NCBI GenBank assembly: GCA_934085825.1
Contig: CAKOHR010000001.1
Location: 64,379 to 128,378, forward strand
Length of the DNA: 64,000 nt
Source of the DNA: an uncultured Bacilli bacterium
GTDB taxonomy: Bacteria > Bacillota_I > Bacilli_A > RF39 > UBA660
Reading direction: 5' to 3'
Shown here: piece after piece, positions 4,863 to 52,235 of the stretch
Position numbering within the stretch: the first letter of the stretch is position 1
Layout of the letters: the number at the start of each line of letters is the position of its first letter
Translations under genes and position numbers: made by a program
Notes under the pieces: model-generated
The model's database searches: none
What the model was told of the DNA's origin: nothing
Seen by the model: the letters and a program-made list of their open reading frames with translations, nothing else

Positions 4863-5350
4863 TGGAAATAAAAAAATAAACGTGCTAAAATGAATATTAA
4901 TAGAGGTAGGGATTTATGAGAAGGTATATTTTAGTTAGTTTATTTTTTTTATTGCTTTATTGGTCAAGTTAATGCAAAAAGTTGATGCTGTTCACATCAT
5001 AATGGGGTTGTTGGTTGCAATCAATATGGTAGAACGGTTTGTAATGATGGTACTATAAGCCCTACGTGTATTTGTGAGCCTGAGATAATTGGTACTATAA
5101 AAGGCTGCATGGATATTTCTGCTAAAAATTACGATCAAAATGCAAATGTTTCAGAGGTTTGTTTATATCAATCTGTGAAAGAAAATGCTACTAATTCCCA
5201 GAAAAATGTAAATGAGGATAGTAATGATAATTTTATGTTTGGTTTTTAAACTTTAAGAGCAATTGTTGTAGGCGCAACATTGAAGAAAAAAAGACGTCGT
5301 ATATAGTTCTAATTATAATTATTTATCATAATAATTAATAAGGTGTTTAT

Positions 5351-6508
5351 ATGAAAAAAAATTTATTAATTATTGTGAGTTTTTTATTTTTAGTTGTTGG
5401 AGTTAAAGCAGAGGAAGATTTTGCTCCGAATGCAAAAAGTGCAATATTAATTGATAACTTATCAGGAAAAGTACTTTATGAAAAAAATGCTGATGAAAAA
5501 TTAGCTCCGGCATCAATGACTAAACTTGGAAGCCTGCTTTTAATAATGGAAGCTTTAGATGATGGTAGTTTAAAATTAGATGATAAAGTAACAATAAGTG
5601 AAGAAGCCGCCAATATGGGCGGTAGTCAAGTTTTTTTACAAGCTGGTGAAAGTTATACCGTTCATGATCTACTTAAAGGAATTGCTATTGCTAGTGGAAA
5701 CGATGCTGTTGTGGCTATGTCGGAAAAATTGGCTGGATCTCAATCAGCTTTTGTAGAAAAACTAAATAAAAGGCTTAAAGAAATTGGAGCTGTAAATACT
5801 AATTTTGTTAATGTTCATGGGCTTGATGCTGAAGGACATTATTCTACAGCTAGAGACATGTCTATTATTGCAAGAGAACTTTTAAAATATCCTAAAATTT
5901 TGGAATATACAAGTATCTATGAGGAATATTTGAAAAAAAATGATGGCTCAAGAATTTGGCTTGTTAATACAAATAAACTAGTGAGATTTTATGAAGGAGT
6001 AGATGGCCTTAAAACTGGTTTTACTAAAACTGCTGGATATTGTTTAACTGCTACTGCTAAAAAAGATAATTTTAGATTAGTTTCGGTTGTAATGGGTGAG
6101 GATACAACAGAGAATAGAAGTAGTGATACAGTTAAATTATTAAATTATGCTTTTAATACATATAAAATTAATATTATTAAAACTAAGGGCGAAGTTTTAG
6201 GAAAAGTTAGAGTAGAACGTGGTAAAAAAGATTTTGCTAATATTGTTTTGGCTGAGGATGCAACAGAACTTTTAAAAAACACCGATGTTGAAGTAAATTA
6301 TAAATTTAATCTATTGGTTGATAAAATAAAAGCTCCAGTTAAACCCGGTGATGTAGTTGGTTATGCTGAAATAGTTGATGATTCGGGAAATATTGTTGAT
6401 GAAGTAAATGTTACTGTAGAAAGTGAGATAAAAAAAGCTAATATTTTAGATTATATGTTAAAGAATTTGCAAGTATTGGGGGCAGGTAAAACATTATTAA
6501 AACAATAA
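5351..6508 (+). CDS. D-alanyl-D-alanine carboxypeptidase (serine-type, PBP5/DacA-like)
   Basis: Signal peptide, SMTK (SxxK) active-site motif, SGN motif, and a C-terminal PBP5-type domain. Confidence 0.85.
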   Translation: MKKNLLIIVSFLFLVVGVKAEEDFAPNAKSAILIDNLSGKVLYEKNADEKLAPASMTKLGSLLLIMEALDDGSLKLDDKVTISEEAANMGGSQVFLQAGESYTVHDLLKGIAIASGNDAVVAMSEKLAGSQSAFVEKLNKRLKEIGAVNTNFVNVHGLDAEGHYSTARDMSIIARELLKYPKILEYTSIYEEYLKKNDGSRIWLVNTNKLVRFYEGVDGLKTGFTKTAGYCLTATAKKDNFRLVSVVMGEDTTENRSSDTVKLLNYAFNTYKINIIKTKGEVLGKVRVERGKKDFANIVLAEDATELLKNTDVEVNYKFNLLVDKIKAPVKPGDVVGYAEIVDDSGNIVDEVNVTVESEIKKANILDYMLKNLQVLGAGKTLLKQ

Positions 6509-6533
6509 AAAAAAGCCTTTTGGGCTTTTTATA
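6509..6533. terminator. bidirectional terminator between convergent genes
   Basis: aaagcc tttt ggcttt hairpin flanked by A-run and T-run. Confidence 0.5.
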
Positions 6534-7947
6534 TTGTTTTTGATGTTAATTTTCTAGTTGAATCAATATCTATAAGTACGTTATCAGAATCTTTTTTTTC
6601 ACCTTCAATAATTTTATCTAATTTGGTGTTGCAGAAATATCTTAAACGATAAATTTCTTTTTCTTCATCTGTTTCAAATAATAAATTTAAAAGTAATTCA
6701 AGACGTTTTTCTTCATCTGGTTCGTTTCCTATCTTTTTAGCTAAAATGGTTTTAAAGTTATATTCATCATAAGTGTTTAGATCATGAGATATTTGTACTA
6801 GCTTGGCAAAAAGATTTATATTTGCTAATATTTCTTTAAATGATACTTCACCATTAGCCATTCTAAATTCTATAGTGTTCTTTTCTGGTTTATTAATGTT
6901 TTGAAGATTTAATCCACGATATCTTGATGAACTTATTTTTTTTATAGTTTCAATGTAATTTGAATAGGTACGACATTTTTCTAAATCACCATTTTCGATT
7001 GAATTTATAAGTTCTTTTTTTATTTTGCCAGCAAATTTGGCAAATTTTAATCTTTTTTGAGAATAAGCTTTGTCTGTTATATTATAGATAATATCTTCAC
7101 AATTAGCAAAAAGATATAATAATGTTGCATAATCTTCCTTGGTTTTAAGGTAATCTGCTCCGATATGAACGTGACAACCGCATGATTGATCTGCTGAAAA
7201 ATTCATCTTTTCTAGAGTTGCACATACGGCTTCAAGTGTAGTAAGGTCCTCTTTTGTGTAGTGGAGAATTGGTGATATAACTTCAAATCCTTTTTTTACA
7301 GAATTATCTTTTGTTATTTCAAATGTATCAAATAAACTAGGAATATTTATAAAACGTTTAATATCTGGATTAATGACTTCTAGTTCAATCCCGATAGTTA
7401 TTTCTGGAGATACCGTACTTGTAACCATATCATCGTTTTCATTTGTATAAAGATTTTTGTTGGCTTTATTGTTGGTGTTTAATAAATATTTTACATCTTT
7501 ATCTTGTATTTTGCTAATTAAATATTGCTCAATTTCACTTTCACTTCCGTAGCAATGGTATACATTTTTTATTAATTCCATTCTGTCTTCAAGCGTTTCA
7601 GCTTCTTCAAATGTTTTTAGTATTTGTTCTTTGTCTTGTGCTGCCACTATAAACATACTTTTTAAAGGAAAGTATGTAGGTTTCATTTTATCTAAAAATT
7701 CTAAAGCCACAACACGTAATGCTTCAGGTGTAAATAGTTTTTTTATTGTTTGTAAATCAAAACGATAATACATTAATGTGTATTTATTAAAAATTTTTTC
7801 TCTTAATTCAGAGTCTTTTATTGATAAAACAATTATTAAAAATTGATCTTGCTTAATTGTAGTATTCTTTTTTAAATATTCAATTAATGCTTCATCATCC
7901 TTACTTTCAAAGTATTTTTTTAATTGCATAATTAACATTTCATTCAT
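6529..7947 (-). CDS. hypothetical protein with a C-terminal glutamine-synthetase-like amidoligase-type domain (tentative)
   Basis: 472 aa. The C-terminal half carries IGIELEV, KKGFEVISPIL, GCHVHIG and TIEFRMANG, which I recognise as the strand motifs of the GCS2/Amidoligase_2-type carboxylate-amine ligase fold. The N-terminal ~180 aa are unique. Confidence 0.5.
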   Translation of the reverse strand: MNEMLIMQLKKYFESKDDEALIEYLKKNTTIKQDQFLIIVLSIKDSELREKIFNKYTLMYYRFDLQTIKKLFTPEALRVVALEFLDKMKPTYFPLKSMFIVAAQDKEQILKTFEEAETLEDRMELIKNVYHCYGSESEIEQYLISKIQDKDVKYLLNTNNKANKNLYTNENDDMVTSTVSPEITIGIELEVINPDIKRFINIPSLFDTFEITKDNSVKKGFEVISPILHYTKEDLTTLEAVCATLEKMNFSADQSCGCHVHIGADYLKTKEDYATLLYLFANCEDIIYNITDKAYSQKRLKFAKFAGKIKKELINSIENGDLEKCRTYSNYIETIKKISSSRYRGLNLQNINKPEKNTIEFRMANGEVSFKEILANINLFAKLVQISHDLNTYDEYNFKTILAKKIGNEPDEEKRLELLLNLLFETDEEKEIYRLRYFCNTKLDKIIEGEKKDSDNVLIDIDSTRKLTSKTI

Positions 7948-12686: not shown

Positions 12687-14648
12687 ATGGACAGAATACG
12701 TGAAAAAATAAAGAAAATCCTTAATAAGGACGTAACAAGTCTTTTAAATAAACATAAAATTCTACTGGTAAGCATAGCTATAGTAGTTATTTTGTCGTGC
12801 GTTGGATTAATAGTTTCGTACGCATTTTATCAAGTTGTAGATACGACCCCAGTGATCTTGAGTACGACACCACAGATAGCAGATTTAGAAGTCAGGATTA
12901 TGGCAGAAGAAAGAGATACTAGTGGTAATGGGCTTAATAGTTATGCTATTTATCCATATATACCAAAAGCTGGATATAAATATGATGCTGGTATGAGTTA
13001 TTGTACAAATGGAAGTACTATTAATTACGATGCAAGTACTTATGATGCCAGTATAAATGCTACCGGGCATGATGTTTGTTATTTATATTTTAAATCAACA
13101 GCAAGCTTAGATATAACTTTAGAAGTTTATGCGGAAAATGTAGATAGTGATGGGGTTGGTAACGGAGAATATACAAAATTAGAAACTACATCTTTGCCAT
13201 CAATTGGATATGAACTTAATAGTAGTAAATCTTATTGTGTGTATGCAAATGATGAAAGTACTCATGTAACTGATACTACAGTTTCTTATAATTCTGATAA
13301 ACAAAAATTTACAGTAAACGCTAGAAAAAAAGGTGCAATTTGTAGGGCTTATATGGATGCAATGGATGTAGATATTGCTCTTAAAATATTTGTTCAAGCT
13401 AAGAAGGGCTCATCAACATATTATGAAGTTGATAAAATACCTGTAACTAGTTTCTATGCACTGAATACTGACAAGTCGGCGTGTACAGGTACATCGACAA
13501 TGTCAATTAAAAATCAAAAAGTTGTGATAGCAGCAACAAATAGAACAAATTGTGTTGCTTATTTAGATGTTTCTTCAGGCCCCTTTATAGAAAGCATGAG
13601 AGTTACAAATTCAGGAACAAGTGCAACAATTACACTTGGAAATAGTAATTTAGGAACAACGCCATCAACATATTATTATTCAAATGATGGTGGAAAAAAC
13701 TATGCAACAAGTACAAGTAACACATATACATTTACAAGTCAAGCAAATCCAAGTTATGCATATAAAGCATATAGTGCAGATGCATCAGGAAATACATCAA
13801 GAGTATTCGAAACATCAACTTATGGATATTATGGATTAGTAGATTATTCAAACCAAATACAGACTAAGACAATTACAGAATCTGGTTATTACAAATTAGA
13901 AACTTGGGGAGCTCAAGGCGGTGGAGATACTAAGTATGTTGGTGGATATGGTGGATATTCGGTTGGATATATTTATTTAAATCCAAATTCAACATTATAT
14001 CTTGCTATAGGTGGAGCTGGTGGTTATTGTACTGGTTCAAGTTGTACTTCAGTAGGAGGGTATAATGGCGGAGGAAACTGTAAAGCATATACAGATTCAA
14101 CATCAACATGTGGAGCTGGTGGTGGAGCTACTCATATAGCGACAATTCCAGGAGTGCTGGCATCATTAGAAAATAATAAAGACAGTATTTTAATAGTTTC
14201 TGGCGCAGGTGGCGGAGGAAATTACTGTAATGACTGGAATTATGCTTCTGGTGGCATGGGCGGCGGATTTACTGGTGGATCTGCAATAGATTTAGGGGCT
14301 CCAGATTTTTCTGCTAATGGTGGTTTAGATACCAAAGGCGGTACACAAGATGGAGGTTGGAAGTTTGGTTTAGGTCGTGGAAGTGAAGGAGCTAACTTTG
14401 TTGGAGGCGGCGGTGGTTATTATGGCGGTAATTCAACATTTATAAATGGCTCTGGTGGTGGTTCTGGTTATATTGGCAATCCATTATTAACAAATAAATC
14501 GATGTATTGTTATAATTGTACAACTAGTAATTTAGAGACAACAAAGACAATTTCTACGACATGCCATAGTTCAAATGCTACTGAAAATTGTGCAAAAGAG
14601 GGTAATGGTTATGCTATTATTACCTATATTGGGAGTGATTTAAGTTAA
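12687..14648 (+). CDS. membrane-anchored glycine-rich surface/secreted protein, tandem paralog 1 of 2
   Basis: 653 aa. A cytoplasmic N-terminus, then a TM anchor ending in an SYAFYQV motif. Next comes a Cys-containing N-domain. The C-terminal half is a Gly-rich region (WGAQGGG, GGYGGY, GGGATHI, IVSGAGGGG, GGGGGYYGG, SGGGSGYIGNPLL), ending in the conserved tail CHSSNATENCAKEGNGYAIITYIG. Confidence 0.8.
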   Translation: MDRIREKIKKILNKDVTSLLNKHKILLVSIAIVVILSCVGLIVSYAFYQVVDTTPVILSTTPQIADLEVRIMAEERDTSGNGLNSYAIYPYIPKAGYKYDAGMSYCTNGSTINYDASTYDASINATGHDVCYLYFKSTASLDITLEVYAENVDSDGVGNGEYTKLETTSLPSIGYELNSSKSYCVYANDESTHVTDTTVSYNSDKQKFTVNARKKGAICRAYMDAMDVDIALKIFVQAKKGSSTYYEVDKIPVTSFYALNTDKSACTGTSTMSIKNQKVVIAATNRTNCVAYLDVSSGPFIESMRVTNSGTSATITLGNSNLGTTPSTYYYSNDGGKNYATSTSNTYTFTSQANPSYAYKAYSADASGNTSRVFETSTYGYYGLVDYSNQIQTKTITESGYYKLETWGAQGGGDTKYVGGYGGYSVGYIYLNPNSTLYLAIGGAGGYCTGSSCTSVGGYNGGGNCKAYTDSTSTCGAGGGATHIATIPGVLASLENNKDSILIVSGAGGGGNYCNDWNYASGGMGGGFTGGSAIDLGAPDFSANGGLDTKGGTQDGGWKFGLGRGSEGANFVGGGGGYYGGNSTFINGSGGGSGYIGNPLLTNKSMYCYNCTTSNLETTKTISTTCHSSNATENCAKEGNGYAIITYIGSDLS

Positions 14649-14779: not shown

Positions 14780-16726
14780 ATGGACAGAATACGTGAAAAA
14801 ATAAAGAAAATCCTTAATAAGGACGTAACAAGTCTTTTAAATAAACATAAAATTCTACTGGTAAGCATAGCTATAGTAGTTATTTTGTCGTGCGTTGGAT
14901 TAATAGTTTCGTACGCATTTTATCAAGTTGTAGATACGACCCCAGTGATCTTGAGTACGACACCACAGATAGCAGATTTAGAAGTCAGGATTATGGCAGA
15001 AGAAAGAGATACTAGTGGTAATGGGCTTAATAGTTATGCTATTTATCCATATATACCAAAAGCTGGATATAAATATGATGCTGGTATGAGTTATTGTACA
15101 AATGGAAGTACTATTAATTACGATGCAAGTACTTATGATGCCAGTATAAATGCTACCGGGCATGATGTTTGTTATTTATATTTTAAATCAACAGCAAGCT
15201 TAGATATAACTTTAGAAGTTTATGCGGAAAATGTAGATAGTGATGGGGTTGGTAACGGAGAATATACAAAATTAGAAACTACATCTTTGCCATCAATTGG
15301 ATATGAACTTAATAGTAGTAAATCTTATTGTGTGTATGCAAATGATGAAAGTACTCATGTAACTGATACTACAGTTTCTTATAATTCTGATAAACAAAAA
15401 TTTACAGTAAACGCTAGAAAAAAAGGTGCAATTTGTAGGGCTTATATGGATGCAATGGATGTAGATATTGCTCTTAAAATATTTGTTCAAGCTAAGAAGG
15501 GCTCATCAACATATTATGAAGTTGATAAAATACCTGTAACTAGTTTCTATGCACTGAATACTGACAAGTCGGCGTGTACAGGTACATCGACAATGTCAAT
15601 TAAAAATCAAAAAGTTGTGATAGCAGCAACAAATAGAACAAATTGTGTTGCTTATTTAGATGTTTCTTCAGGCCCCTTTATAGAAAGCATGAGAGTTACA
15701 AATTCAGGAACAAGTTCAACAATAACACTGGGAAATAGTAATTTAGGAACAACACCATCAACATATTATTATTCAAATGATGGTGGAAAAAACTATGTAA
15801 CAAGTACAAGTAACACATATACATTTACAAGTCAAGTAAATCCAAGTTACGCATATAAAGCATATAGCGCAGATGCATCAGGAAATACATCAAGAGTATT
15901 TGAAACATCAACATATGGATACTATGGATTAGTAGATTATTCAAATCAAATACAAACAAAAACAATTACTGAACCTGGATATTATAAATTAGAAACTTGG
16001 GGAGCTCAAGGTGGAGGATATGGTGAGTATATAGGTGGATATGGAGCATATGCAATAGGATATATCAGACTTGATGCTGGTCCAGTGTATATTAATGTTG
16101 GTGGAGCTGGTAAGAGTGGTGTACAAAGTTCAGAAGGAATTGTTACTTCTGGAGGGTACAATGGCGGTGGAGCCAACACATCAAACAGTTATGGTATTGG
16201 AGGTACTGGTGGTGGAGCAACTCATATATCATTACGTTCTGGGTTATTGCAAACATTAAGTGATTATTTAAATGAGTTGTTAATAGTCTCAGCCGGAGGT
16301 GGCGGAGGTTCACAAGAAATAGGCTATATAGGTTATTGTTATGGTGGATCTGGCGGCGGTATAACAGGAACAGTGGGCTCGTTAAATCCTAACAGAGGTG
16401 ATGGTGGTCCCGGACTTGCAAGTGCACCTACACAAAGCAGTGGTTATGCATTTGGAGCTGGTCAACCAGGCGTTGGTTGGCAAGGCGCAGGTGGTGGCGG
16501 TTATTATGGTGGCATAGCAGGATGCGGTGGATCTGGTGGTTCATCCTACATTGGCAATCCTCTTTTAGTTAATAAATCAATGTATTGTTATAATTGTACA
16601 ACCAGTAGTGCTGAAGCCACTAAAACTGTTTCAACAACATGTCATAGCTCAAATGCTACTGAAAATTGTGCAAAAGAAGGTAATGGTTATGCTATTATTA
16701 CCTATATTGGCGAAAGTTTGGATTAG
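14780..16726 (+). CDS. membrane-anchored glycine-rich surface/secreted protein, tandem paralog 2 of 2
   Basis: 648 aa. The first ~310 aa are essentially identical to paralog 1, and divergence grows after that. The Gly-rich half is strongly diverged, but the last ~50 aa are conserved. Confidence 0.8.
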   Translation: MDRIREKIKKILNKDVTSLLNKHKILLVSIAIVVILSCVGLIVSYAFYQVVDTTPVILSTTPQIADLEVRIMAEERDTSGNGLNSYAIYPYIPKAGYKYDAGMSYCTNGSTINYDASTYDASINATGHDVCYLYFKSTASLDITLEVYAENVDSDGVGNGEYTKLETTSLPSIGYELNSSKSYCVYANDESTHVTDTTVSYNSDKQKFTVNARKKGAICRAYMDAMDVDIALKIFVQAKKGSSTYYEVDKIPVTSFYALNTDKSACTGTSTMSIKNQKVVIAATNRTNCVAYLDVSSGPFIESMRVTNSGTSSTITLGNSNLGTTPSTYYYSNDGGKNYVTSTSNTYTFTSQVNPSYAYKAYSADASGNTSRVFETSTYGYYGLVDYSNQIQTKTITEPGYYKLETWGAQGGGYGEYIGGYGAYAIGYIRLDAGPVYINVGGAGKSGVQSSEGIVTSGGYNGGGANTSNSYGIGGTGGGATHISLRSGLLQTLSDYLNELLIVSAGGGGGSQEIGYIGYCYGGSGGGITGTVGSLNPNRGDGGPGLASAPTQSSGYAFGAGQPGVGWQGAGGGGYYGGIAGCGGSGGSSYIGNPLLVNKSMYCYNCTTSSAEATKTVSTTCHSSNATENCAKEGNGYAIITYIGESLD

Positions 16727-17520: not shown

Positions 17521-17639
17521 ATAAAAAAATGCTCATTTTTTTCTTGTATACTAGGAAAGTCATCCAAAATTTGCAAAATAAAATCTTGATATATGGCCGA
17601 ACATATGATATAATTTAATTGTCCAAGGGGGATTGATTA

Positions 17640-18782
17640 ATGAATACTTATAGAGCATATAAATTAAGAATTTATCCTACTGATTTACAAAGAGAATTAA
17701 TTGAAAAAACTTTTGGGTGTACTAGATATATTTATAATAATTTTCTTGCAGAAAGAAAAAATAAATATGAAGAAAGTAAAATAAAAGTGCATGTTTATGA
17801 ACAGCTAAAAGAACTAACAGATTTAAAAAGGGAAAAAGAATGGTTAAGAGAAATAGATTCATGTGCTTTGCAAGCATCAGTATATAATTTAGATGATGCA
17901 TTTCAAGGATTTTTTCATGGTAAGGGCTATCCAAAATTTATGGCAAAAGGTGTACATGAAAGTTTTAGAACTAATAATACATTAAGTACTTATAAAAATA
18001 AAAAGTATGAAACTATCAGAGTAGATTTTAATAAAAGAATAATAACTTTACCAAAATTAAAAGAAGTAAAGTTTCGAGGATATAGAACAACTAAGGAAAT
18101 CGTAGGAAAAATAAAATCAGCAACAATAAGCAAGGATGCTAACAAATATTTTGTAAGCATCTTAGTTGAAGTGCCATTTTTTAAATATTCAATAAATCCA
18201 ACATCAATCGTGGGATTAGATTTAGGAATTAAAGATTTTATAGTAACATCAAATGGAGAAAAATTAAAAAATGAAGTAAAGATCAATGAGAAGAGATTAA
18301 AAGGATTACAAAGATGGTTAGCTAGATGCAAACCAGGAAGTAAAAATAGATATAAAGTAAAATTAAAAATACAAAGATTATATTTAAAAATTAGGAATGC
18401 CAGAAAATATATGATATATAAACTTGCAAATAATATCTTAAAGGAAAATGACATTGTAGCTGTTGAAACACTAGCTGTTAAAAGCATGTATCAAGTCCAT
18501 AAAATAGCTAAACACTTAAAAAACATACCTATCAGTGAATTTATACGAGTCTTAAAATACAAAGCAGATTGGTTAGGTAAAAAAGTTATTAGTATAAATA
18601 AATATTATCCAAGTAGTCAATGTTGTAATAGATGTGATTATAAAAATGAAGAAGTAAAGGATTTAAGTGTAAGAAAATGGATATGTCCAAGATGTGGATT
18701 TGAACATGACAGAGATATAAATGCAAGTGAAAATATAATGTTTGAAGGATTGAAAATATATATGAAAGAGTGTATAATATAA
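17640..18782 (+). CDS. tnpB: TnpB (OrfB) RNA-guided endonuclease / IS605-family transposase accessory protein
   Basis: 380 aa. N-terminus MNTYRAYKLRIYPT...Q.ELIEKTFGCTRYIYN, a RuvC-like core (GLDLGIKDF), and a C-terminal zinc finger CCNRC...CPRCG. Confidence 0.85.
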   Translation: MNTYRAYKLRIYPTDLQRELIEKTFGCTRYIYNNFLAERKNKYEESKIKVHVYEQLKELTDLKREKEWLREIDSCALQASVYNLDDAFQGFFHGKGYPKFMAKGVHESFRTNNTLSTYKNKKYETIRVDFNKRIITLPKLKEVKFRGYRTTKEIVGKIKSATISKDANKYFVSILVEVPFFKYSINPTSIVGLDLGIKDFIVTSNGEKLKNEVKINEKRLKGLQRWLARCKPGSKNRYKVKLKIQRLYLKIRNARKYMIYKLANNILKENDIVAVETLAVKSMYQVHKIAKHLKNIPISEFIRVLKYKADWLGKKVISINKYYPSSQCCNRCDYKNEEVKDLSVRKWICPRCGFEHDRDINASENIMFEGLKIYMKECII

Positions 18783-18804
18783 ATAAGAACAAAATGAATA
18801 TAAG

Positions 18805-18916
18805 TAGGGTGGCGACCATCCGAAGTTGGTCTGCTTAAGAAACCTAAGGTTTCTGTGAAACAGAAAAGTGTTACCGTGAGGTAACACAGATACTTGAATT
18901 TCGTTAGAAATTTAAG
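18805..18916 (+). ncRNA. omega-RNA (reRNA) scaffold, 3' part, derived from the IS right end (probably begins inside the tnpB 3' end)
   Basis: The block lies immediately after the tnpB stop and ends at the element boundary. It contains the perfect hairpin gtgttacc gtga ggtaacac. A second stem shows compensatory substitutions relative to the copy at 34425-34536. Confidence 0.55.
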
Positions 18917-18970
18917 TTATGTTCTTTATAGTTGGAAGATATAGTATAATTTAAAGTAGAATGAAATGGG

Positions 18971-21237: not shown

Positions 21238-21771
21238 GTGATTTTAATGACTATGAAGAAAATAAAGGTAATAAATGTTATTTTTCTTTTTTTGTTATCT
21301 TTTTTATGGCACTTTATGTATGATTTAATACCTTGTAATTTTATTGCTTTGTTTTTTCCTGTTAATGAAAGTATTTGGGAACATATGAAAATAATTTATT
21401 ATTGTTTGTTACTTTCTTCGGTACTTGAATTTATTTTATGTCATAAATTTAAAATTAAAATATCAAATTTTTATATAAGTACAATGGTTAAATCTTTAAT
21501 GGGGGTAATTTTTTATCTTATAGTTTTTGTACCAATTTATAAATTAATTGGAGAGTCTATGTTTGTATCAATAGGTTTGATGCTTCTTATTTATATTTTA
21601 ATGGAGTTTATTAGTTATAGAATTTTGCAAAGTGAAGAGTTAAATATTAATATATTACCAGTAATAATTATTGGCCTTGGCATAATCTTATTTATTATTC
21701 TTACTTTCTATCCTTTACATAACTTTTTATTTTTTGATAATGTAAAATTTGGTTATGGAATTTTAAAATAA
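21238..21771 (+). CDS. hypothetical polytopic membrane protein
   Basis: 177 aa with about five hydrophobic helices. Confidence 0.45.
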   Translation: MILMTMKKIKVINVIFLFLLSFLWHFMYDLIPCNFIALFFPVNESIWEHMKIIYYCLLLSSVLEFILCHKFKIKISNFYISTMVKSLMGVIFYLIVFVPIYKLIGESMFVSIGLMLLIYILMEFISYRILQSEELNINILPVIIIGLGIILFIILTFYPLHNFLFFDNVKFGYGILK

Positions 21772-21794
21772 CCACATCAATTTAGATGTGGTTA

Positions 21795-22001
21795 TTACTT
21801 TTCAATGGAAACTTTAGAATCATTTTTATCATTTCCTTTTTCTATATTTTCAAGTGCATATTCACATGCTTGAATAACAAATCTAGAAAATGTTATATTA
21901 GTGTTCGATAATTCTTTTTCAATTTTATTAATTAATGGTAGAGGAAATCTTATTGTTTTATTTTCTGTTTCTCTTTTTTCTTCATTTAATCTAAATGCCA
22001 T
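21795..22001 (-). CDS. small hypothetical protein (possible ribbon-helix-helix-type DNA-binding protein)
   Basis: 68 aa from the ATG preceded by a GGAGG RBS. The tracked ORF extends further 5' but lacks an RBS there. Confidence 0.4.
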   Translation of the reverse strand: MAFRLNEEKRETENKTIRFPLPLINKIEKELSNTNITFSRFVIQACEYALENIEKGNDKNDSKVSIEK

Positions 22002-22174
22002 TTTTAGTACCTCCACCAATATCGTAATACAATTTACACTCAAAGTATGCATTGCAAAAAGCCTTGCAAATCATTCCTTTTTGTAGTAAAATTAAAAAAG
22101 TAAGATAGATTATTCGTGGTATGACAAATTTTTTACATGTATTTTGGTAAGATAAATAAAAGGGATGGTAGTGT

Positions 22175-23353
22175 ATGAAAAAACATAAGAAATTATTTGT
22201 AACTTTAGGTGTTATTTTAGCTATAATAATTAGTTTCATATTTGGTTCAAAAAACGATGATGTTTATAAGGAGGATACTAAAACTAAAATTGTAAAAAGA
22301 AAAAATACATTATCAATGATGTTAGAAACTGAAGCTGGTTCAGGAAACTATGAAATGACAACACAAAGTGGGTGGCCAACGGATGGATATACTTTTAATT
22401 CAACATTATCAAAATGTGAAAATGGTGGTGAAGTTTATTGGGACGATTCAAGTAAGAAAGTGTTTATGAGTGCCAATATGTCTGATAAATGCTATGTGTA
22501 TTTTGACAAAACTCCAACTAGTTTAGCAGATTATGTAAAATCATTGTATACAGGAACACAAGGGGAAAATAATATTTATTATCATAATGGTACAATTGTA
22601 AGTAAGAATGAATTTACAGATGATAATAATACAACATATCCTGTTGGTACAATATTGGATGCAAATGATGGAAGTTATAGATATGCTGGAGCAAAGGAGG
22701 CAGTAAATAATTATGTCTGCTTGGACTCAAATGAAAATACATGTTCAAAGGCGAACCTTTTTAGAATAATTGGAGTATTTGATAATAAAGTAAAACTAAT
22801 CAAAGCAAAACCGATAGGTAGTATGGCATGGAACAGCGATGAGCTTAATGGTTGGGAAACGTCAAGCTTATATACATATTTAAATGGTGAATATTTAACA
22901 AGTTTAGGTGATCTAGCGAATAAAATAGATACAGCAACATGGGAAACTATTGGAAATACTGTAGAAAAAATATATGGTGTAGTACCAGCGATAACATATC
23001 AAAATGAAGTAGTAAATTCAGCAATAACAGATTATACATTTAATGCTAAAATTGGTCTAATATATTTATCGGATTTTGGATTTGCGGCAAGTTCAAGTGC
23101 ATGGTCAACAACATTAAATAATTATGAAAATTCGTCAATAACATCAGTAAATTGGATTGGTTCTAAAGAATGGACTATTACCCGTGTAGTAGAGGATGTT
23201 ACTTATGATTCTGCGTTCCTTACAGTTTACGGTGGCTTTGTGGGTGAACCGGTTAATTCTGACAATTATGTAAGTCCTTCTTTCTACCTTTCATCTTCAG
23301 TAACCTATGTATCGGGGAGTGGCAGCGCCAGCGACCCGATGGTAATAAACTGA
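22175..23353 (+). CDS. membrane-anchored secreted protein. Its N-domain is related to the Gly-rich paralogs, and its C-terminal domain is shared with 49832..51778
   Basis: TM anchor. SKCENGG...CYVYFDKTP resembles SYCTNGS...CYLYFKST of 12687/14780. The C-terminal region (NLFRIIGVFDNKVKLIK, KIGLIYLSDFGFAA, EWTITR, SPSFYLSSSVTYVSGSG..DP) is paralogous to the C-terminus of 49832..51778. Confidence 0.7.
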   Translation: MKKHKKLFVTLGVILAIIISFIFGSKNDDVYKEDTKTKIVKRKNTLSMMLETEAGSGNYEMTTQSGWPTDGYTFNSTLSKCENGGEVYWDDSSKKVFMSANMSDKCYVYFDKTPTSLADYVKSLYTGTQGENNIYYHNGTIVSKNEFTDDNNTTYPVGTILDANDGSYRYAGAKEAVNNYVCLDSNENTCSKANLFRIIGVFDNKVKLIKAKPIGSMAWNSDELNGWETSSLYTYLNGEYLTSLGDLANKIDTATWETIGNTVEKIYGVVPAITYQNEVVNSAITDYTFNAKIGLIYLSDFGFAASSSAWSTTLNNYENSSITSVNWIGSKEWTITRVVEDVTYDSAFLTVYGGFVGEPVNSDNYVSPSFYLSSSVTYVSGSGSASDPMVIN

Positions 23354-23535
23354 TCTACGGACAGTTTTAAAAAACATCGGTGAAACCTAACAACAAAGAG
23401 GTAAAAAGTTTGACCAGTACTCGACGATTTACCTTTTTTAAATAATGTTCAGAACAATAAAAAATATGAGTTTGATAATGACTTTTTAATTATTATGTGT
23501 TAAAATAAGTTTAATTTTTAAAGAGGAATTATGAA

Positions 23536-23970
23536 ATGAAAAAATTAATTAAATATTTTGTTTTATTTGTTTTATTATTTATACCTGGTATTGCTTTTGC
23601 TCAAGAATTAGAAATAGTTTCAGTTGATGTATGTAGCAGTGATAGTGGAGTTCTTAAAGTTTTTCAAGTTATTGGATATGTAATTTATATCATTAAAATT
23701 TTAGTGCCAATTATAATTATTTTATTAGGTATGATTGAATTTGGAAAGGCTACGATTACAAAAGATGAAAAAGCAATTTTCTTGGCTGCTAATAGCTTAA
23801 TGAATAAAGTAATTATTGGGGTACTAGTATTTATGGTACCTACATTATTAAATGCTTTACTTAATTTAGTAGATGGAGCACTTGAGACTAAAAATGCGTA
23901 TAAGACATGTACTGTTTGTGCTTTAACACCATTTAGTGATGAATGTAAGCCTAAAGGTTTAATGGATTAA
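23536..23970 (+). CDS. small secreted/membrane protein with a C-terminal Cys cluster
   Basis: Signal peptide (FIPGIAFAQE), two hydrophobic helices, and a CTVCALTPFSDEC tail. Confidence 0.45.
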   Translation: MKKLIKYFVLFVLLFIPGIAFAQELEIVSVDVCSSDSGVLKVFQVIGYVIYIIKILVPIIIILLGMIEFGKATITKDEKAIFLAANSLMNKVIIGVLVFMVPTLLNALLNLVDGALETKNAYKTCTVCALTPFSDECKPKGLMD

Positions 23971-24048
23971 AATGGATTAAATAGTCCATTTTTTCTTTTA
24001 TTATATCTTATTAAATGTTATAATGATTGTATACATGTGGAGGCTTAA

Positions 24049-26132
24049 ATGAATATGTTAGAAGGATTAAATAAAGAACAAAAAGAGGCAGTTTTACATA
24101 CAGACGGGCCTTGCTTGGTGCTTGCTGGTGCAGGTTCAGGAAAAACAAAAGTTTTAACAACTAGAATAGCAAATATGATAAATGATGGTATATATTCAGG
24201 AAATATTTTAGCTATAACATTTACAAATAAAGCTGCTAAAGAAATGCGAGATAGAATAAGTAATATGGTGGAAAATAATTATGCTTTTGTTGGAACATTT
24301 CATTCTTTTGGACTTAGGGTTATTAGAGAAAATACAGAAAAATTAGGCTTAACAAGTAATTTTACTATAATTGATAGTGATGATGTTTCAAGTGTCATAA
24401 AAAAAATAATGAAAGAACTTGATATAAGTACTAAAGAATATAGTGTAAGTTATATAAGAAATAAAATTAGTTTTATTAAAAATGAAATGCTTAGTGATAG
24501 TGAAGTTGATAAATATTTAAATAGTCCACCAGAAAAAGTAGCAATTAGGGTATATCATGAATATGAAAAAGTATTAAAGAGAAATAATGCTGTAGATTTT
24601 GATGATTTATTAAAAAGACCTGTTGAATTATTTATGCAAAATGATGATATATTAGATAAATATCAAGAAAAATATAGATATATTTTAATAGATGAATATC
24701 AAGATACAAATGAGGTACAATATAAGTTAGTTAAGTTACTTGCTAGTAAATATCGTAATTTATTTGTAGTGGGTGATGTTAATCAAAGTATATATGGATT
24801 TAGATGGTCAAATTATAAAAATATACTTAATTTTGAAAAGGATTATCCTGATAGTAAAAGTATTACTTTAAATCAAAATTATCGAAGTACAAATAATATT
24901 TTGAATGCTGCCAATAGTGTTATAAAAAATAATGTTGAAAGAAAAGAAGTAAATTTATATAGTACTTTTGGTGATGGTGTTAAAATTAAATATTTTAGAG
25001 GTAATGATGAGAAAGATGAAGTAAAACTTGTCATTGATGAAATGAAGAAATTACTTAATGAAGGATATGATTATAATGACTTTGCCATACTTTATAGAAC
25101 TAATGCTCAATCAAGAAATGTTGAAGATGCTATATTAAAAGTTAATTGGCCTTATAGAGTTGTTGGTAGTTATTATTTCTACAAAAGAAAAGAAATTAAA
25201 GATTTACTTTGTTATTTAAGACTTATTTCTAATCATCAAGATGATGTTTCTTTAGAAAGAGTTATAAATGTACCTAAAAGAGGCATTGGGGATACATCAA
25301 TTAATAATTTGAGAAGTATAGCACGTGAAAATAATGAATGTATGTTTAAGTGTTTATCTAAGCCTAAGGAAGTTGAATTTAAAAAATTGATTTTAGAGCT
25401 TACCGAAGATGCTAAAGATTTAGATTTAACTGAATTAATTGATGTGGTGCTTGAAAAATCTGGATTAAAAGATGAACTTGAAAAGGAACATACTTTGGAA
25501 GCTGATATTAGACTTGAAAACTTAATGGAATTTAAAAGTATTACAGAAAACTATCAAAAAGAAACTGGTACAGTAAATCTTGAAGACTTTCTTGAAGATA
25601 TTAGTATTGTAGCTGATCAATCAGAACATGAAACTTTAGATAATGCCGTTACACTTATGACAATGCATGCTGCTAAAGGACTTGAATTTAAAGTGGTATT
25701 CTTAATTGGTATGGAAGAAGGTATAATGCCACATTCAATGAGTTTAAATGAAGATGGTGAACTTGAAGAAGAAAGAAGACTTTGTTATGTTGGTATAACT
25801 AGAGCTAAAGAAAGACTTTATATTACCAATGCTAAAAGAAGAATGCTATTTGGTAATACCAATATGAACCCGCCATCAAGATTTATCGCGGAAATAGATA
25901 ATAATTTAATAGAAAAAGAAGAAAGTAAAACAGAAAATAAAGCATTTAATAAAACAAACTTTTATGAGGGAGATAGAATTGATTACAAACATGGAGAAAT
26001 TGTTATGCATGCATCATTTGGCAAAGGTGTTGTTATAGATAATGATGAAAGATTTGTAACAGTTGCCTTTGATAAAAGGTTTGGTATAAAGAAATTTTTA
26101 AATAATTATCAAGGTTTAAGGAGGATTGGAAA

Positions 26133-26136
<4 letters not shown>
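24049..26136 (+). CDS. pcrA: ATP-dependent DNA helicase PcrA (UvrD family)
   Basis: GAGSGKT Walker A, DEYQDTN, TMHAAKGLEF and VGITRAKE helicase motifs. Followed by ligA, as in Firmicutes. Confidence 0.9.
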
Positions 26137-33494: not shown

Positions 33495-33516
33495 AGCTTA
33501 GCTCTATTTTTCCTTT
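33491..33516 (+). terminator. rho-independent terminator
   Basis: atagagc tta gctctat hairpin plus a T-run. Confidence 0.5.
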
Positions 33517-33611
33517 TTTATATACTAAGATAGTTATCCTAATTCTACAAAAACAAATCTTGATATATGGCCGAACATATGGTATAATTCGATTATCATG
33601 GAGGCATTATA

Positions 33612-34449
33612 ATGACTATATATAAAGCATATAAATTTAGAATTTATCCAAATAGAGAGTAAAAGGTAATGATAGATAAAACTTTGGATGTACGAGGTTT
33701 GTTTTCAATAAATTCTTAGTAGAAAGAAAAAAATATGAAGAAAACAAAATTAAATTAAGTGCTTATGATGAGTTAAAAGAACTAATTGATTTTAAAAAAA
33801 GTGGCTTAAAGAAGTAGATTCATGTGATCTTCAAAAATGTGTATTTAACTTAGATGATGCATTTAAGAATTTTTTTTCGTGAAAATTGATATCCAAAATA
33901 TAGAAGCAAAGGAGAACATGAAAGTTATACAACAAATAACACATTAAATGAATATAAAAATGTTAAATATGAAAGTATAAGAATAGATTTAAAAAAATAA
34001 AGTAATAACATTACCAAGACTAAAAAAAGTAAAGTTTCGAGATATAGAAAACCAAAGTAGTAATAGGAAAAATAAAGTCAGCAACAATTAGTAAAGATGC
34101 TAGCAAGTATTTTGTAAGCATCCTTGTTGAAGAGCCGTTTACTAAACCAACTATAAATCCAACATCAATCTTGGGATTAGATTTAGGCATCAAAGATTTT
34201 ATAATTACTTCATATGGAGAAAAACTAAAAAATGAGGTAAAAGTAAATGAATATTATCCAAGTAGCGAGGTTTGCAATAGATGTGAATATAAAAATGAAG
34301 AAGTAAATGATTTAAGTGTAAGAAAATGGATATGTCCAAGATGTGGAATGGATCATGATAGAGATATAAATGTAAGTGAAAATATAATGTATAATATAAA
34401 TAGGAACGAAATAGCTAAAAATATTAGGGTGGCGACTATCCGAAGTTGA
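33612..34449 (+). pseudogene. tnpB pseudogene (multiple frameshifts, internal deletion)
   Basis: Segments homologous to TnpB lie in three frames. The zinc-finger fragment CNRCEY...CPRCG is retained in ORF 34171..34449. Confidence 0.6.
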
Positions 34450-34536
34450 TCTGCTTGAGAAACTTTGGTTTTCAGCGAAACAGAAAAGTGTTACCGTGAG
34501 GTAACACTGCTACTTGAATTTTGTTAGAAATTTAAG
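34425..34536 (+). ncRNA. omega-RNA-like right-end scaffold of the decayed element
   Basis: About 85% identical to 18805-18916. The gtgttaccgtgaggtaacac hairpin is retained, and there are compensatory changes in the gaaacc/ggtttc stem. Confidence 0.45.
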
Positions 34537-34596
34537 CTTTGTTGTGGTTGCTTTCAAAATAAAATTAGTTTAAAATAAATATTGTGAGAGGTAATT

Positions 34597-42622: not shown

Positions 42623-42743
42623 ATGATTTTTCTATAAGCAAATGACAATTGTATGACTAATGTTTTTAATATCAATTTGTAGTTTGAAATTATTATAATT
42701 TTATGATAATATAAGTCTATATGAATGAAAAATTCATATAATA

Positions 42744-42861
42744 AAAAAAGAAACATTTGATTTTCATAGGTCAATGCTTACTTTTTTATGTAGATGATGT
42801 TTACTTGAACATTTATAATGACAAGTAAACATTTTTTTAATGAAGCAAAAATCAAATGTTT
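42744..42861. repeat. nested-palindrome repeat element, copy 1 (outer 15-20 bp inverted arms enclosing a terminator-like hairpin)
   Basis: The outer arm aaaaaagaaacatttgatttt (42744-42764) is the reverse complement of aaaatcaaatgtttc (42847-42861). The inner hairpin is gtttacttg (42799-42807) / caagtaaac (42822-42830), followed by TTTTTTT. The same architecture recurs at 51984-52172. Confidence 0.5.
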
Positions 42862-42942
42862 CAATATTTTTTGTAACAAAAATGTGACTATAAGTAAAAG
42901 AAAATATACTTTTATAAAATATAACTTTTTTATGCAAATGAT

Positions 42943-42980
42943 GTTTACTTGAACGTTTAAAGTTTAGGTAAACTTTTTTT
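42943..42980 (+). terminator. second gtttac...gtaaac hairpin plus T-run in the ATPase leader (attenuator-like)
   Basis: gtttac (42943-42948) ... gtaaac (42968-42973) followed by TTTTTTT, about 50 nt upstream of the ATPase start codon. Confidence 0.4.
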
Positions 42981-43030
42981 GTTCTACTTACGATAGCTTG
43001 TACATATTATTATTCTGGGAGGAAAGGCAC

Positions 43031-49831: not shown

Positions 49832-51778
49832 ATGAATAGTAGTAACAGAAAAAATATGATATTAAGTGGAGTAGCAATTACTCTTTTAGTTGCCTTAATT
49901 ATTGGAGCAACTTATGCCTATTTTGCAGCACAAACAGGTAACCCAGCATCAGCAGACATCAGAATAAATGCAAATACGGTTGATACATTAACATTTGCAA
50001 GTGGTGATCCAATATCCTTTAGTATTAATCAAGAAAATTTTGCTGAGGGTACTGGTAATCAAACAGGAAGTACATATGCAAGTGCAATACTTACGGCAAA
50101 TAATAAAACAAACACTGCGACAGAACATTATTATTTATATTTAAATATAGAAAATAATACATTTAATTATTCAATTAATAGTGACACTCCCGAAATAATA
50201 ATGACAATAACGGATAATGTTGGAAATGAAGTAACAGACTTAGTTGGGCTTACATATGTAACAGCAACTGGTGCTGATGGAAACCAAGTAAAAGGATATG
50301 ATATAACAAATAAAAATGGTTTATTTATATTATTTAGAGATAGAGAAATTACAACGACATCAACTAAAGAAGAAAGATGGAATGTAAAAGTAACATTTAT
50401 AAATTATAATGAGAATCAAGCAGCAAATGCTGGAAAAAGTATGAGTGCAAAATTAATAATTAGAAAAAATGAATTTAATTATAATATTTCTAAGGCGTGT
50501 AGTAATGGCGAAAAATTATCTGATTGCATAATTTCACTTAGTGAAAAAGATATAGCAGGTGCTACAAAAGTATATCACCATGATGCAAATCTTGCATATG
50601 GAGCCGGAGATAATTCATATAGGTTTGCTGGAGGAGGACATTCAGATTATTATGTATGTAAATATGATGGTAATGATGTGATGAATACAAATGGGGAAAA
50701 AACTCTACCTGAAGTAGATTGTTCAAATATTTACAAGGTGACATATGGAGCTGAGATTCAGTATGCAGATAATTCATATAGTACAGTTTTTATAAATAAG
50801 AAAACAGTAAATTGGGATAGTACAAATAGTAAATGTGTTACTTCATCAGGTGATGATGTTAAATCATATGAAAGTGGTACAGTAACACAAGATGCGTGTA
50901 CCGGAACAGCCTATTATGTGACAATTTACGGTGGATACTGGTTAGGAATAGAAGAGGTAGGCGCTGGAGAAGAAGTATTAGTCGGATATGCCGAAAGTGA
51001 AGTTAATAATTTTGTGTGTTTTGGTTCTAATGAAGCATTATGTCCAACAGATAACTTATACAGAATAATTGGAGTAATAGATGGCAAAGTAAAATTAATA
51101 AAATATGATTATGCAACTAGTAGCTTACTTGGAACAGATGGAGAATATGCCAAATATGGAGGAGAATATAGCAAATATTATAAAGGAAATTTAACAACAA
51201 TGGATTGGTATTACTGGAATAATGATAGTAACACTTGGAGTACTAGTTTACTAAATAAGACAAATTTAAACACAAATTTTATTAATAATATGGAAAATGA
51301 ATGGATAAAAAAAATCGCTACAACAATATGGAAGGTTGGTGGAAATTCATATCAAAAAATAAAATTAGCAATTCCAACAATAGCATATCAAAATGAAATT
51401 GTAAGCCCAGATCCAACAAGTACATCAACAACAGGAGAAACAGTATACACAGCCAAAATAGGATTGATGTACGCATCAGATTATGGATTTGCAGCAGGTC
51501 CGAGTGCATGGACAACAACTTTATGGGATTATGGTGAAAATGATGAATCTGGAAAATTGATAAGATATGAAAATTGGATGTTTATGGGATATAGAGAATG
51601 GACCATAACTCGTCGAAATGATAAGTATAGTGTGGCTTTGGTGGAACGTGATGGTAAATTTAATGACACGGGGTATGGAAATAGCTGTGCGGTTCGTCCT
51701 GTTTTCTTTTTAGAAAGTTCGGTTGCATACGCTAGTGGTGATGGAACTTTAGAAAATCCAATTCGCCTCGGGGATTAA
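49832..51778 (+). CDS. secreted protein with a TasA/camelysin-type (SipW-cognate) signal peptide; its C-terminal domain is shared with 22175..23353
   Basis: N-terminus MILSGVAITLLVALIIGATYAYFAAQTG matches the GxTxAYF class of SipW-processed signal peptides. C-terminal motifs (NLYRIIGVIDGKVKLIK, KIGLMYASDYGFAA, EWTITR, AVRPVFFLESSVAYASGDG..NP) are paralogous to 22175..23353. Confidence 0.75.
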   Translation: MNSSNRKNMILSGVAITLLVALIIGATYAYFAAQTGNPASADIRINANTVDTLTFASGDPISFSINQENFAEGTGNQTGSTYASAILTANNKTNTATEHYYLYLNIENNTFNYSINSDTPEIIMTITDNVGNEVTDLVGLTYVTATGADGNQVKGYDITNKNGLFILFRDREITTTSTKEERWNVKVTFINYNENQAANAGKSMSAKLIIRKNEFNYNISKACSNGEKLSDCIISLSEKDIAGATKVYHHDANLAYGAGDNSYRFAGGGHSDYYVCKYDGNDVMNTNGEKTLPEVDCSNIYKVTYGAEIQYADNSYSTVFINKKTVNWDSTNSKCVTSSGDDVKSYESGTVTQDACTGTAYYVTIYGGYWLGIEEVGAGEEVLVGYAESEVNNFVCFGSNEALCPTDNLYRIIGVIDGKVKLIKYDYATSSLLGTDGEYAKYGGEYSKYYKGNLTTMDWYYWNNDSNTWSTSLLNKTNLNTNFINNMENEWIKKIATTIWKVGGNSYQKIKLAIPTIAYQNEIVSPDPTSTSTTGETVYTAKIGLMYASDYGFAAGPSAWTTTLWDYGENDESGKLIRYENWMFMGYREWTITRRNDKYSVALVERDGKFNDTGYGNSCAVRPVFFLESSVAYASGDGTLENPIRLGD

Positions 51779-51880: not shown

Positions 51881-51957
51881 GGCGAGATAGCTCAGCTGGC
51901 TAGAGCATCCGGTTCATACCCGGCAGGTCGAGAGTTCGAATCTCCCTCTCGCTACCA
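51881..51957 (+). tRNA. tRNA-Met (anticodon CAT; could alternatively be the lysidine-modified tRNA-Ile2)
   Basis: GGCGAGATAGCTCAGCTGGCTAGAGC ... anticodon loop TTCATAC ... GGTCGAGAGTTCGAATCTCCC, with encoded CCA. Confidence 0.85.
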
Positions 51958-51983
51958 ATTTGAAATAAATATTTTTTTATATA

Positions 51984-52172
51984 AAAAAGAAACATTTGAT
52001 TTGGTCGTCCGATGTCATCTTTTACTGCTAATGATGTTTACTTGAATATTTATTATAACAAGTAAACATTTTTTTAATATTCCAAAAATTTTACTTATTA
52101 GACTCACCTCCATAAATAATTATTTAATGGGAAGTAATATAATTACTATTGGTAATAAAAATCAAATGTTTC
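51984..52172. repeat. nested-palindrome repeat element, copy 2 (expanded spacer)
   Basis: 5' arm aaaaaagaaacatttgattt (51984-52003). Inner hairpin gtttacttg (52036-52044) / caagtaaac (52059-52067) plus a T-run. 3' arm aaaatcaaatgtttc (52157-52172). Confidence 0.45.
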
Positions 52173-52235
52173 GAAAAATATTTTAACAAATAAATTGTAT
52201 TTAGTAAAGAAAAATTTACTATGTGGTAAATAAAA

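Follow-up and report, generated by a model that had tools for sequence, protein, structure and literature searches.

The protein and its parts

The window, by which we mean the whole stretch of 64,000 nucleotides (nt) that was analyzed, comes from an uncultured Bacilli bacterium of the human gut and has a GC content of 27%. It contains a gene for a protein of 392 amino acids (aa), here called p22175 after its first nucleotide, and three sister genes encoding p12687, p14780 and p49832. A first-pass annotation of the window had described these four as built from three shared modules, an anchor with an N-terminal domain, a glycine-rich domain and a C-terminal domain. The coordinates of the features are collected in Table 1.

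An AlphaFold2 (AF2) model of p22175 was obtained with a predicted local distance difference test score (pLDDT) of 77 and a predicted template modeling score (pTM) of 0.74. The model begins with a hydrophobic helix that would serve as a membrane anchor or else be a signal that is not cleaved. It continues through a disordered linker (residues 24-42, pLDDT < 50) into a small β module that we call the N-domain, and ends in a head of mixed α/β structure (residues 117-392) that belongs to the C-module. The homologs of p22175 number more than 7000; full-length orthologs comprise 370-390 aa and are ~50% identical, and some homologs carry tandem double heads.

Table 1. Features of the p22175 locus, of the sister genes and of the retroelement beside a family member. 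Positions are those of the window, or of locus L047 where so indicated.
Feature	Position	Strand	Description
p22175 gene	22175..23353	+	Open reading frame (ORF), 392 aa: predicted transmembrane (TM) anchor, linker, N-domain, DUF6273-like head
N-terminal hydrophobic helix, residues 5-23	22187..22243	+	Helix in the AF2 model; sequence MKKHKKLFVTLGVILAIIISFIFG
N-domain, residues 44-114	22304..22516	+	Six-strand β module of ~70 aa; bracket of invariant C81 and C106
C-module, residues 115-392	22517..23350	+	Divergent DUF6273, C-type-lectin-like; paralog of residues 225-648 of the 49832-51778 product
Hypervariable region, codons 338-364	23186..23266	+	Between EWTITR and YVSPSF; β-hairpin and flanking loops in the model
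GC-rich hairpin	23311..23340	+	ATCGGGGAGTGGCAGCGCCAGCGACCCGAT; within the codons for SGSGSASDP; 44 nt past the last variable codon
Gly-rich paralog 1 (p12687)	12687..14648	+	653 aa: TM helix, three N-domains (nt 12876-13574), FN3-like stretch, ALK_LTK_GRD (residues 397-648)
Gly-rich paralog 2 (p14780)	14780..16726	+	648 aa; architecture as p12687; tandem duplicate of it
p49832	49832..51778	+	648 aa: hydrophobic N-terminus ...GATYAYFAAQ, β-sandwich (residues ~61-211), C-module (residues 225-648; nt 50504-51775)
Small divergent ORF	21795-22052	-	62-85 aa by start choice; 95% identical in L032
144-aa protein	23536-23970		Signal-like N-terminus, two hydrophobic helices, Cys-rich tail; directly downstream of p22175 in all strains
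L047 MutS-domain-I-like ORF	5764-6144 (L047)		126 aa; matches MutS_I
L047 small ORF			120 aa; no Pfam match; Avd-like from position only
L047 reverse transcriptase	6456-7550 (L047)		364 aa; RVT_1 E = 5e-18; IGNMTSQ and YMDD motifs

A head of the DUF6273 type

The C-terminal regions of p22175 and p49832 are paralogous, as had been claimed in the first-pass annotation. BLASTP with composition-based statistics aligned them with E = 3e-38 and 38% identity over 263 columns (residues 173-391 of p22175 against 387-646 of p49832). A profile-profile comparison using alignments of 43 orthologs of p22175 and 42 of p49832 gave a probability of 100% and E = 1.9e-87 for residues 115-392 against 225-648. Both methods indicate that the similarity is real and not a matter of composition. 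Since the profile-profile alignment extends over residues 115-392 of p22175, the shared module has a length of ~275 aa, and not the ~220 aa originally assigned to it. The motifs quoted for this domain (NL[FY]RIIGV.D.KVKLIK; KIGL.Y.SD[FY]GFAA..SAW.TTL; EWTITR; [RS]P.F[FY]L.SSV.Y.SG.G...P) are all present in both translations. A helix and a stretch 'YYH...DNSYRYAG...NYVC' are also common to the two C-modules, this part being interrupted in p49832 by the first of two insertions. The C-module of p49832 contains a Cys-rich insertion of ~110 aa (approximately residues 277-385) and a second insertion of ~25 aa.

When compared with the Pfam model of DUF6273 (PF19789), p22175 scores 10.8 bits with E = 0.44, below the cut-off of 23.5. 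But 38 of the 43 full-length orthologs (51-92% identical) match the model at E ≤ 0.01, the best of them with 1.7e-9, and many homologs have a precomputed PF19789 annotation. The membership of p22175 in DUF6273 is therefore one of transitive homology. Its fold is an enlarged version of that of C-type lectins, as in the solved DUF6273 domain at the N-terminus of an immunoglobulin A (IgA) peptidase (IgAse). A Foldseek search against viral models (BFVD) returned phage DUF6273 and receptor-binding proteins with E values down to ~1e-10, and a sequence search of the PDB with the family profile gave nothing at E ≤ 1. For annotation this means that proteins of the p22175 type are DUF6273 proteins that escape the Pfam model.

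H137, D165 and C182 of p22175 are invariant among the 43 orthologs, and C190 is nearly so (residues 137-190, nt 22583-22744). The solved IgAse domain contains a structural zinc ion bound to D78, H90 and C126 (PMC12237041).

A stalk module that carries different heads

The N-domain strands in the AF2 model comprise residues 46-51, 59-62, 72-81, 86-90, 95-99 and 106-112, and its invariant residues include W67, P68, G71, Y72, C81, C106, Y107, Y109 and F110. The resemblance of this Cys-framed domain to the N-terminal part of p12687 and p14780, noted at first pass, is borne out. Residues 1-115 of p22175 align with residues 20-140 of p12687 with E = 3e-8 and 25% identity, and the N-domain alone gives E = 6.5e-11 and 34.8% identity over 46 residues. 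What had been overlooked is that the Cys...C.Y[FLM] module is present in three tandem copies in the Gly-rich proteins (residues 64-138, 139-225 and 226-296).

A profile of the four window copies matched 1264 cluster representatives at E ≤ 1e-3, and 496 at ≤ 1e-10, out of 1.84 billion searched. In these public data each protein has between one and six copies, and almost always the first copy starts near residue 45, behind a TM helix and linker. Our own hidden Markov model of the C-module matched 40 of the 150 best N-domain representatives. Among the 101 of these that have at least 260 aa, PF12810 (ALK_LTK_GRD) was found in nine, DUF6273 in eight, and fn3, PKD or Flg_new in a few; most have no Pfam match. 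In the precomputed Pfam lists for homologs of p22175 there is no domain besides DUF6273. The N-domain is the only one of the three modules that lacks a Pfam model, so that a stalk domain of ~70 aa with some 1260 cluster representatives stands without a family model. Given the variety of heads and the constant starting position, it is likely to be a general stalk placed behind a membrane anchor. This supports the view that the modules have been combined by domain shuffling, the N-domain having been joined to the C-module, the ALK_LTK_GRD glycine-rich domain (GRD) and other heads.

A hypervariable patch in the head

The most informative feature of the C-module had gone unnoticed in the first-pass annotation. 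It is a hypervariable patch of the kind associated with diversity-generating retroelements (DGRs). We fetched 86 loci of the family, labeled L0xx, and compared each with itself and with the others for pairs of template and variable repeats. Locus L004 contains an allele of the p22175 gene that is 92% identical. The two genes differ at 50 of 1179 nt, with 30 of the differences inside the 81 nt of the patch and 20 in the other 1098. Within the patch 18 of 27 codons are changed, one of them synonymously, and the flanks are identical both on the EWTITR side and from YVSPSF through the stop codon. A third allele class has another version of the patch, with a 12-nt insertion.

In the AF2 model the strands of the patch are residues 346-351 and 354-359. 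Hypervariability is thus localized to the binding end of a lectin-type fold, which is a hallmark of DGR targets. In the DUF6273 targets of phage DGRs the variable region is a β-hairpin at the C-terminal end of the domain (PMC11792537, PMC10743442). Adenine occurs in at least one allele at 23 of the 29 variable columns (a manual count on the allele alignment), where roughly half of the columns should do so if there were no bias toward adenine. We regard this as a mild signal. The variable regions of paralogs reach a GC content of 0.62 and have at least 0.40 in 26 of 38 cases; the loci lie at 0.23-0.30.

A GC-rich hairpin in the coding sequence

Downstream of the patch, a GC-rich inverted repeat lies within the coding sequence of p22175, a second hallmark of DGR targets. 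It is written in rare codons (TCG GGG AGT GGC AGC GCC AGC GAC CCG). Homing of a DGR requires a GC-rich hairpin downstream of the variable repeat, in which the sequence of the stem is not constant (PMC3240598). Using RNA parameters the hairpin has a calculated stability of -17.3 kcal/mol, which was equaled by none of 5000 synonymous recodings drawn with the codon usage of the window (mean -6.4, standard deviation 2.5). Compared with dinucleotide shuffles using DNA parameters the effect is weak (z = -1.39). The argument therefore rests upon the codon-level control, the shuffle test alone being unremarkable. The region 23291-23365 is one of ~14 stretches in the window (~10 separate spots) that have a GC content of at least 55% over 45 nt.

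We examined 54 3' ends of family genes. A strong hairpin is found at this place in 14 of them, including those of two family members, L047 and L056, that are proven DGR targets (see below). The remaining 40, p49832 among them, have none. Four sequence types can be distinguished among the hairpins; they spell out one and the same peptide in different, mutually complementary codons, and one of these is the type of L047 and L056. The four types pair in two registers that are 1 nt apart, and for this reason synonymous recoding was used for the controls. In their last 66 nt, p22175 and type-A paralogs from other genomes agree at 85-92% of positions, where the genes as a whole are 58-66% identical; the value of 92% is that for the L018 paralog, which comes from another genome. 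The hairpin is therefore a candidate for the target-recognition element of a DGR.

DGRs that act on family members

The family members in L047 and L056 are proven DGR targets. The L047 gene (CALVIU010000003.1) has the architecture of p22175, to which it is 40% identical along the entire length. Its variable repeat (4965-5065) differs from a template repeat (5383-5483), located ~250 nt past the stop codon of the gene, at 17 positions, and all 17 are template adenines. In L056 (CALVKN010000001.1), from the genome of another species, 16 of 16 mismatches fall at adenines; the template is the same as that of L047 and the variable repeat is different. The L047 cassette has the order template repeat, MutS-like ORF, 120-aa ORF and reverse transcriptase (5383-7550), and a reverse transcriptase also adjoins the L056 target. 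Cassettes of this MSL plus avd type have been described (PMC5758913). The patch of p22175 occupies the position of the ISR...VRP interval of the L047 and L056 pairs of variable and template repeats, and the edges coincide.

Comparison across the 86 loci gave clean template-variable pairs only in L047 and L056. Template-like fragments that did not give clean pairs are present in L017 and L058. The L017 segment follows the gene. Where it departs from the variable regions of L009, L018 and L070, it does so nearly always at its own adenines (10 of 10, four of four and seven of eight positions, respectively), and it does not pair cleanly with the L017 gene itself.

Origin of the patch variation

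The anatomy of helix, linker, disulfide-bracketed stalk, lectin-fold head and hypervariable hairpin is, on the basis of the model, that of a putative surface receptor or adhesin. We think it probable that p22175 is a surface binding protein whose patch is written by a DGR, with the template and reverse transcriptase located outside the window. We would say with similar, moderate confidence that the writing of the patch is current or very recent. Because the hallmarks of a DGR target are present and neither template nor reverse transcriptase lies in the 64 kb, p22175 is most likely a remote target and less likely a relic. In such a mechanism the hydrophobic helix would hold the protein in the membrane, and a flexible linker of ~20 aa together with a single disulfide-bracketed β stalk would carry the DUF6273 head of ~275 aa. 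The β-hairpin and loops of residues 338-364 would offer a hypervariable surface that presumably contacts the ligand, for which a host glycan or mucus, IgA, another microbe or a phage are candidates. Mutagenic retrohoming from the remote template would write the patch, and the GC-rich hairpin would be the element by which the target is recognized.

A wider version of this scheme can be put forward tentatively, and with less confidence than the scheme itself. There might be a network of one DGR and many targets, in which some of the paralogs are rewritten by a reverse transcriptase and template located at a distance of more than 40 kb or on a different contig. The hairpin in SGSGSxSDP would then act as an address label, and paralogs without it, such as p49832, would be exempt. 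If this were true, a hairpin in the coding region would decide which members of a surface-protein family are hypermutable.

A number of observations weigh against a DGR as the source of the variation. The hairpin of p22175 has a 3-nt loop and lies 44 nt away, as against GRNA loops of 4 nt and distances of 4-34 bp in published examples from phages (PMC3240598). The patch has a GC content of 0.40, as against 0.53-0.57 in the proven targets, and among the 120 best homologs of the reverse transcriptase of L047 there is none that could be linked to the contig of the window. Other observations of this kind also favor the rival view that the patch of the same surface protein arose without a DGR, by ordinary mutation under strong diversifying selection and/or gene conversion from paralogs, with the hairpin and GC-rich tail being relics of an earlier association with a DGR or having another role, for example in mRNA stability or as a recombination signal. 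No template repeat was found in the 64-kb window by repeat search, by short-word blastn or with an N-masked pattern allowing three mismatches, nor was a reverse transcriptase found there by Pfam search of unassigned ORFs or by looking for the pair IGxxxSQ...YxDD on both strands. Four other contigs with alleles have the same synteny, with no DGR nearby and no template repeat. The allele classes are separated by the 12-nt indel, and at many variable positions alleles have the same state (L004 and L087). Third codon positions vary in the patch. These features do not match the classic AAY-codon pattern, and the GC-rich 3' edge, where a variable repeat has its IMH element, appears decayed, reading GTA AGT CCT (VSP) instead of the GTG AGG CCG (VRP) of proven targets. 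At the syntenic locus in L032 the lectin-like part has been replaced or has diverged between flanks that are 85-97% identical, so turnover that does not depend on a DGR acts at the locus too. Yet diversification without a DGR seems an unlikely explanation of the patch itself. It accounts poorly for 30 substitutions in 81 nt against 20 in 1098 nt, for sharp edges that are those of the variable repeats of paralogs, and for the predominance of adenine in the variable columns. A relic should decay, but the rare-codon hairpin is perfectly kept, in a tail nearly shared with a paralog of another genome. Non-phage DGRs with targets located more than 100 kb from their reverse transcriptase are on record (PMC5758913), and writing by a DGR is therefore compatible with a window that contains none. 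Two scans of JGI metagenomes and one of IMG/VR for the template pattern or alleles gave nothing; the species is absent from those collections, and was found solely in ENA, NCBI and Logan data.

Two other explanations concern the nature of the protein. The first-pass annotation had taken the four genes for exported, possibly fiber- or matrix-forming proteins. It is true that the leader GATYAYFAAQ of p49832 recalls the SipW-dependent signals of TasA and CalY, as does ...SYAFYQV of p12687, but this is resemblance only, and we consider it improbable that these are secreted fiber or extracellular-matrix subunits of the TasA type made of shuffled modules. There is no match in Pfam or NCBIfam to TasA/camelysin (Peptidase_M73) or to the SipW-type signal model, the SipW-like motif SxSMxP was not found in the window, and there is no match to the TasA fold. 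A TasA identity for p49832 was rejected, as it agrees with neither signal model nor fold and no SipW-like motif accompanies it in the window. The heads have folds of binding type, and p22175 has a plain TM helix and a lectin-fold head whose relatives are receptor-binding or diversified by DGRs. Given a hypervariable patch on a lectin-like head and relatives that are rewritten by DGRs, p22175 is better described as a fast-evolving binding protein than as a component of a fiber or matrix. An origin from prophage receptor-binding proteins, of the tail fiber or tentaclin type, is hardly credible. DUF6273 is indeed frequent in the receptor-binding proteins and DGR targets of gut phages (PMC10743442, PMC11792537), in keeping with the matches to viral models in BFVD (E ~1e-10). 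But the gene lies between those of ScpA, ScpB and DUF6512 and those of PcrA and LigA in a synteny conserved in several strains, encodes an N-terminal TM helix and has no phage structural genes seen around it, and up to eight dispersed copies of the family occur per genome.

The sister genes

The C-terminal domains of p12687 and p14780 are members of the ALK_LTK_GRD family. Their matches to PF12810 have E = 3.1e-33 with 116.2 bits and E = 3.6e-27 with 96.3 bits, respectively, against a cut-off of 24.5, and span positions 4-243 of the 243 in the profile. As DUF6273 and ALK_LTK_GRD are both widespread Pfam families, the description of the modules as lineage-specific is not supported. The two genes form a mosaic pair. 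They do not differ at all over the first 935 nt, and over residues 1-400 the identity is ~99%; it falls to only 36-58% in the GRD core (residues 400-600) and is again 90% in the last 50 aa. From the sequences it looks as if the GRD core had been exchanged in the manner of a cassette, or diversified, and the flanks homogenized. The close relative L004 has a single GRD gene in the fetched part of the locus.

For p49832, there is no relative between 62% and 100% identity among 5.8 billion clustered proteins, and its 90% cluster comprises the identical sequence only, on 12 contigs. The closest homolog (P0122), 62% identical in the aligned region, has another context, following a ribosomal protein/rpoA operon. 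In the window p49832 is flanked by a CAT-like acetyltransferase and a tRNA-Met with IS30 remnants, and from this setting it is probably strain-specific accessory DNA. A tblastn search of the window with all four proteins found no copies of the modules beyond the known pairs. A weak match at 63438-63713 lies inside an AAA-ATPase/DUF4143-like ORF and was set aside as due to chance.

Distribution and genomic setting

The full architecture of p22175 was confirmed at 271 loci in data with one genome per species, and is multi-copy in uncultured gut Bacilli. The best 80 loci were kept; these come from ~25 genomes, with up to eight loci in one genome, that are labeled as uncultured Bacilli, uncultured Tenericutes, Firmicutes CAG:460, Clostridium CAG:609 and Candidatus Onthocola. 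The family is found mainly in small, AT-rich genomes. Contigs of strains that carry the window locus come from Hadza, Nepalese and other gut metagenomes. A carboxypeptidase of the PBP5 type is encoded in the window, and thus the organism probably has a cell wall. We know of no cultured representatives of small-genome gut Bacilli of this kind. The large family of surface proteins described here, in which anchor and stalk are shared, heads can be exchanged and a binding site of lectin type is hypermutable, provides concrete candidates for their adhesins or receptors.

The strains share the order ScpA-ScpB-DUF6512-small ORF-p22175-144-aa protein-PcrA-LigA. The region 4001-5224 of L032 (URWD01000003.1, 'uncultured Tenericutes' UMGS1410) is syntenic with 21238-26136 of the window. 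The DUF6512 protein is 85% identical between the two, the small ORF 95%, PcrA 97% and the 144-aa protein 65%. The surface protein of L032 is only 41% identical to p22175, which it resembles in the N-terminal half but not in most of the lectin-like half. By this comparison the locus is a hot spot of surface-protein turnover. The 144-aa protein has no family match in Pfam or NCBIfam. Its rate of evolution exceeds that of the housekeeping genes on either side, and it may function as a partner to the surface protein. The small divergent ORF, which gave the impression of a ribbon-helix-helix protein, has no Pfam match at E ≤ 0.1. Homologs that are 58-59% identical occupy the same divergent place upstream of family genes in L084 and L062, in whose fetched flanks there is no DUF6512 or PcrA, and in Candidatus Onthocola an HTH_3 gene is found in its position. 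The small ORF may encode a dedicated regulator.

Elsewhere in the window there is an OrfB/TnpB gene of the IS605 type (17640-18782; Pfam assignment from the L004 ortholog), within a repeat at 17540-18923. A second copy with its upstream region, at 33514-34543, is 75-90% identical; it contains no ORF of at least 150 aa, and so is apparently decayed. A noncoding repeat of ~200-300 nt is present at 42719-42996 and 51958-52220, and includes a 70-nt element with the inverted repeat GTTTACTTG...CAAGTAAAC. One copy lies upstream of a P-type ATPase gene (42998-45613) and the other after the tRNA-Met (51881-51957) and before an IS30-type transposase. In the latter the IS30 match is confined to the second ORF (53256-53786), and the upstream ORF (52471-53127), which has no family match, is taken as the N-terminal part. 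The repeat could be a common regulatory element or the end of an insertion sequence.

Comparison with known systems

The domain at the N-terminus of the Thomasclavelia ramosa IgA peptidase (IgAse/ThomasA; PDB 9QA6) is also assigned by Pfam to DUF6273. It is an enlarged C-type-lectin-like domain whose function is unknown and which is dispensable for the cleavage of IgA (PMC12237041, PMC12402451). There the domain precedes a metallopeptidase as an accessory, whereas in the window it forms the C-terminal head of small anchored proteins that lack a peptidase. Legionella pneumophila Lcl has a C-terminal domain of 131 residues (PDB 8Q4E; DUF1566-type) that is 8% identical, is borne on a collagen-like stalk and is not hypervariable. 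The glycine-rich domain of ALK and LTK corresponds to the C-terminal 250 aa of p12687 and p14780, where it is mounted on an anchor and stalk of the p22175 type.

Among variable proteins, Treponema denticola TvpA (PDB 2Y3C) and Mtd of the Bordetella phage have only a distant similarity of fold, belonging to an FGE-sulfatase-like subfamily and not to DUF6273. Moreover TvpA is a lipoprotein, in contrast to the TM helix and stalk domain of p22175. The phage DUF6273 targets, which are the nd4/nd12 tentaclins and those of the Faecalibacterium prophages Lelie, CP11, Roos and Pioen, are of the same family as p22175 and have their variable region at the C-terminus in a surface β-hairpin (PMC10743442, PMC11792537). 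Those are virion or tail proteins encoded beside their DGR, whereas p22175 is chromosomal, set in housekeeping synteny, by prediction TM-anchored, and stalked, with no DGR within 64 kb. It offers a testable case of remote, multi-target diversification by a DGR in a cellular, non-phage setting. p22175 probably belongs to the known DGR variable proteins of the C-type-lectin fold (DUF6273), among which it is unusual in being chromosomal and, by prediction, TM-anchored on an unclassified stalk, in having a large family of paralogs, and in having no DGR nearby.

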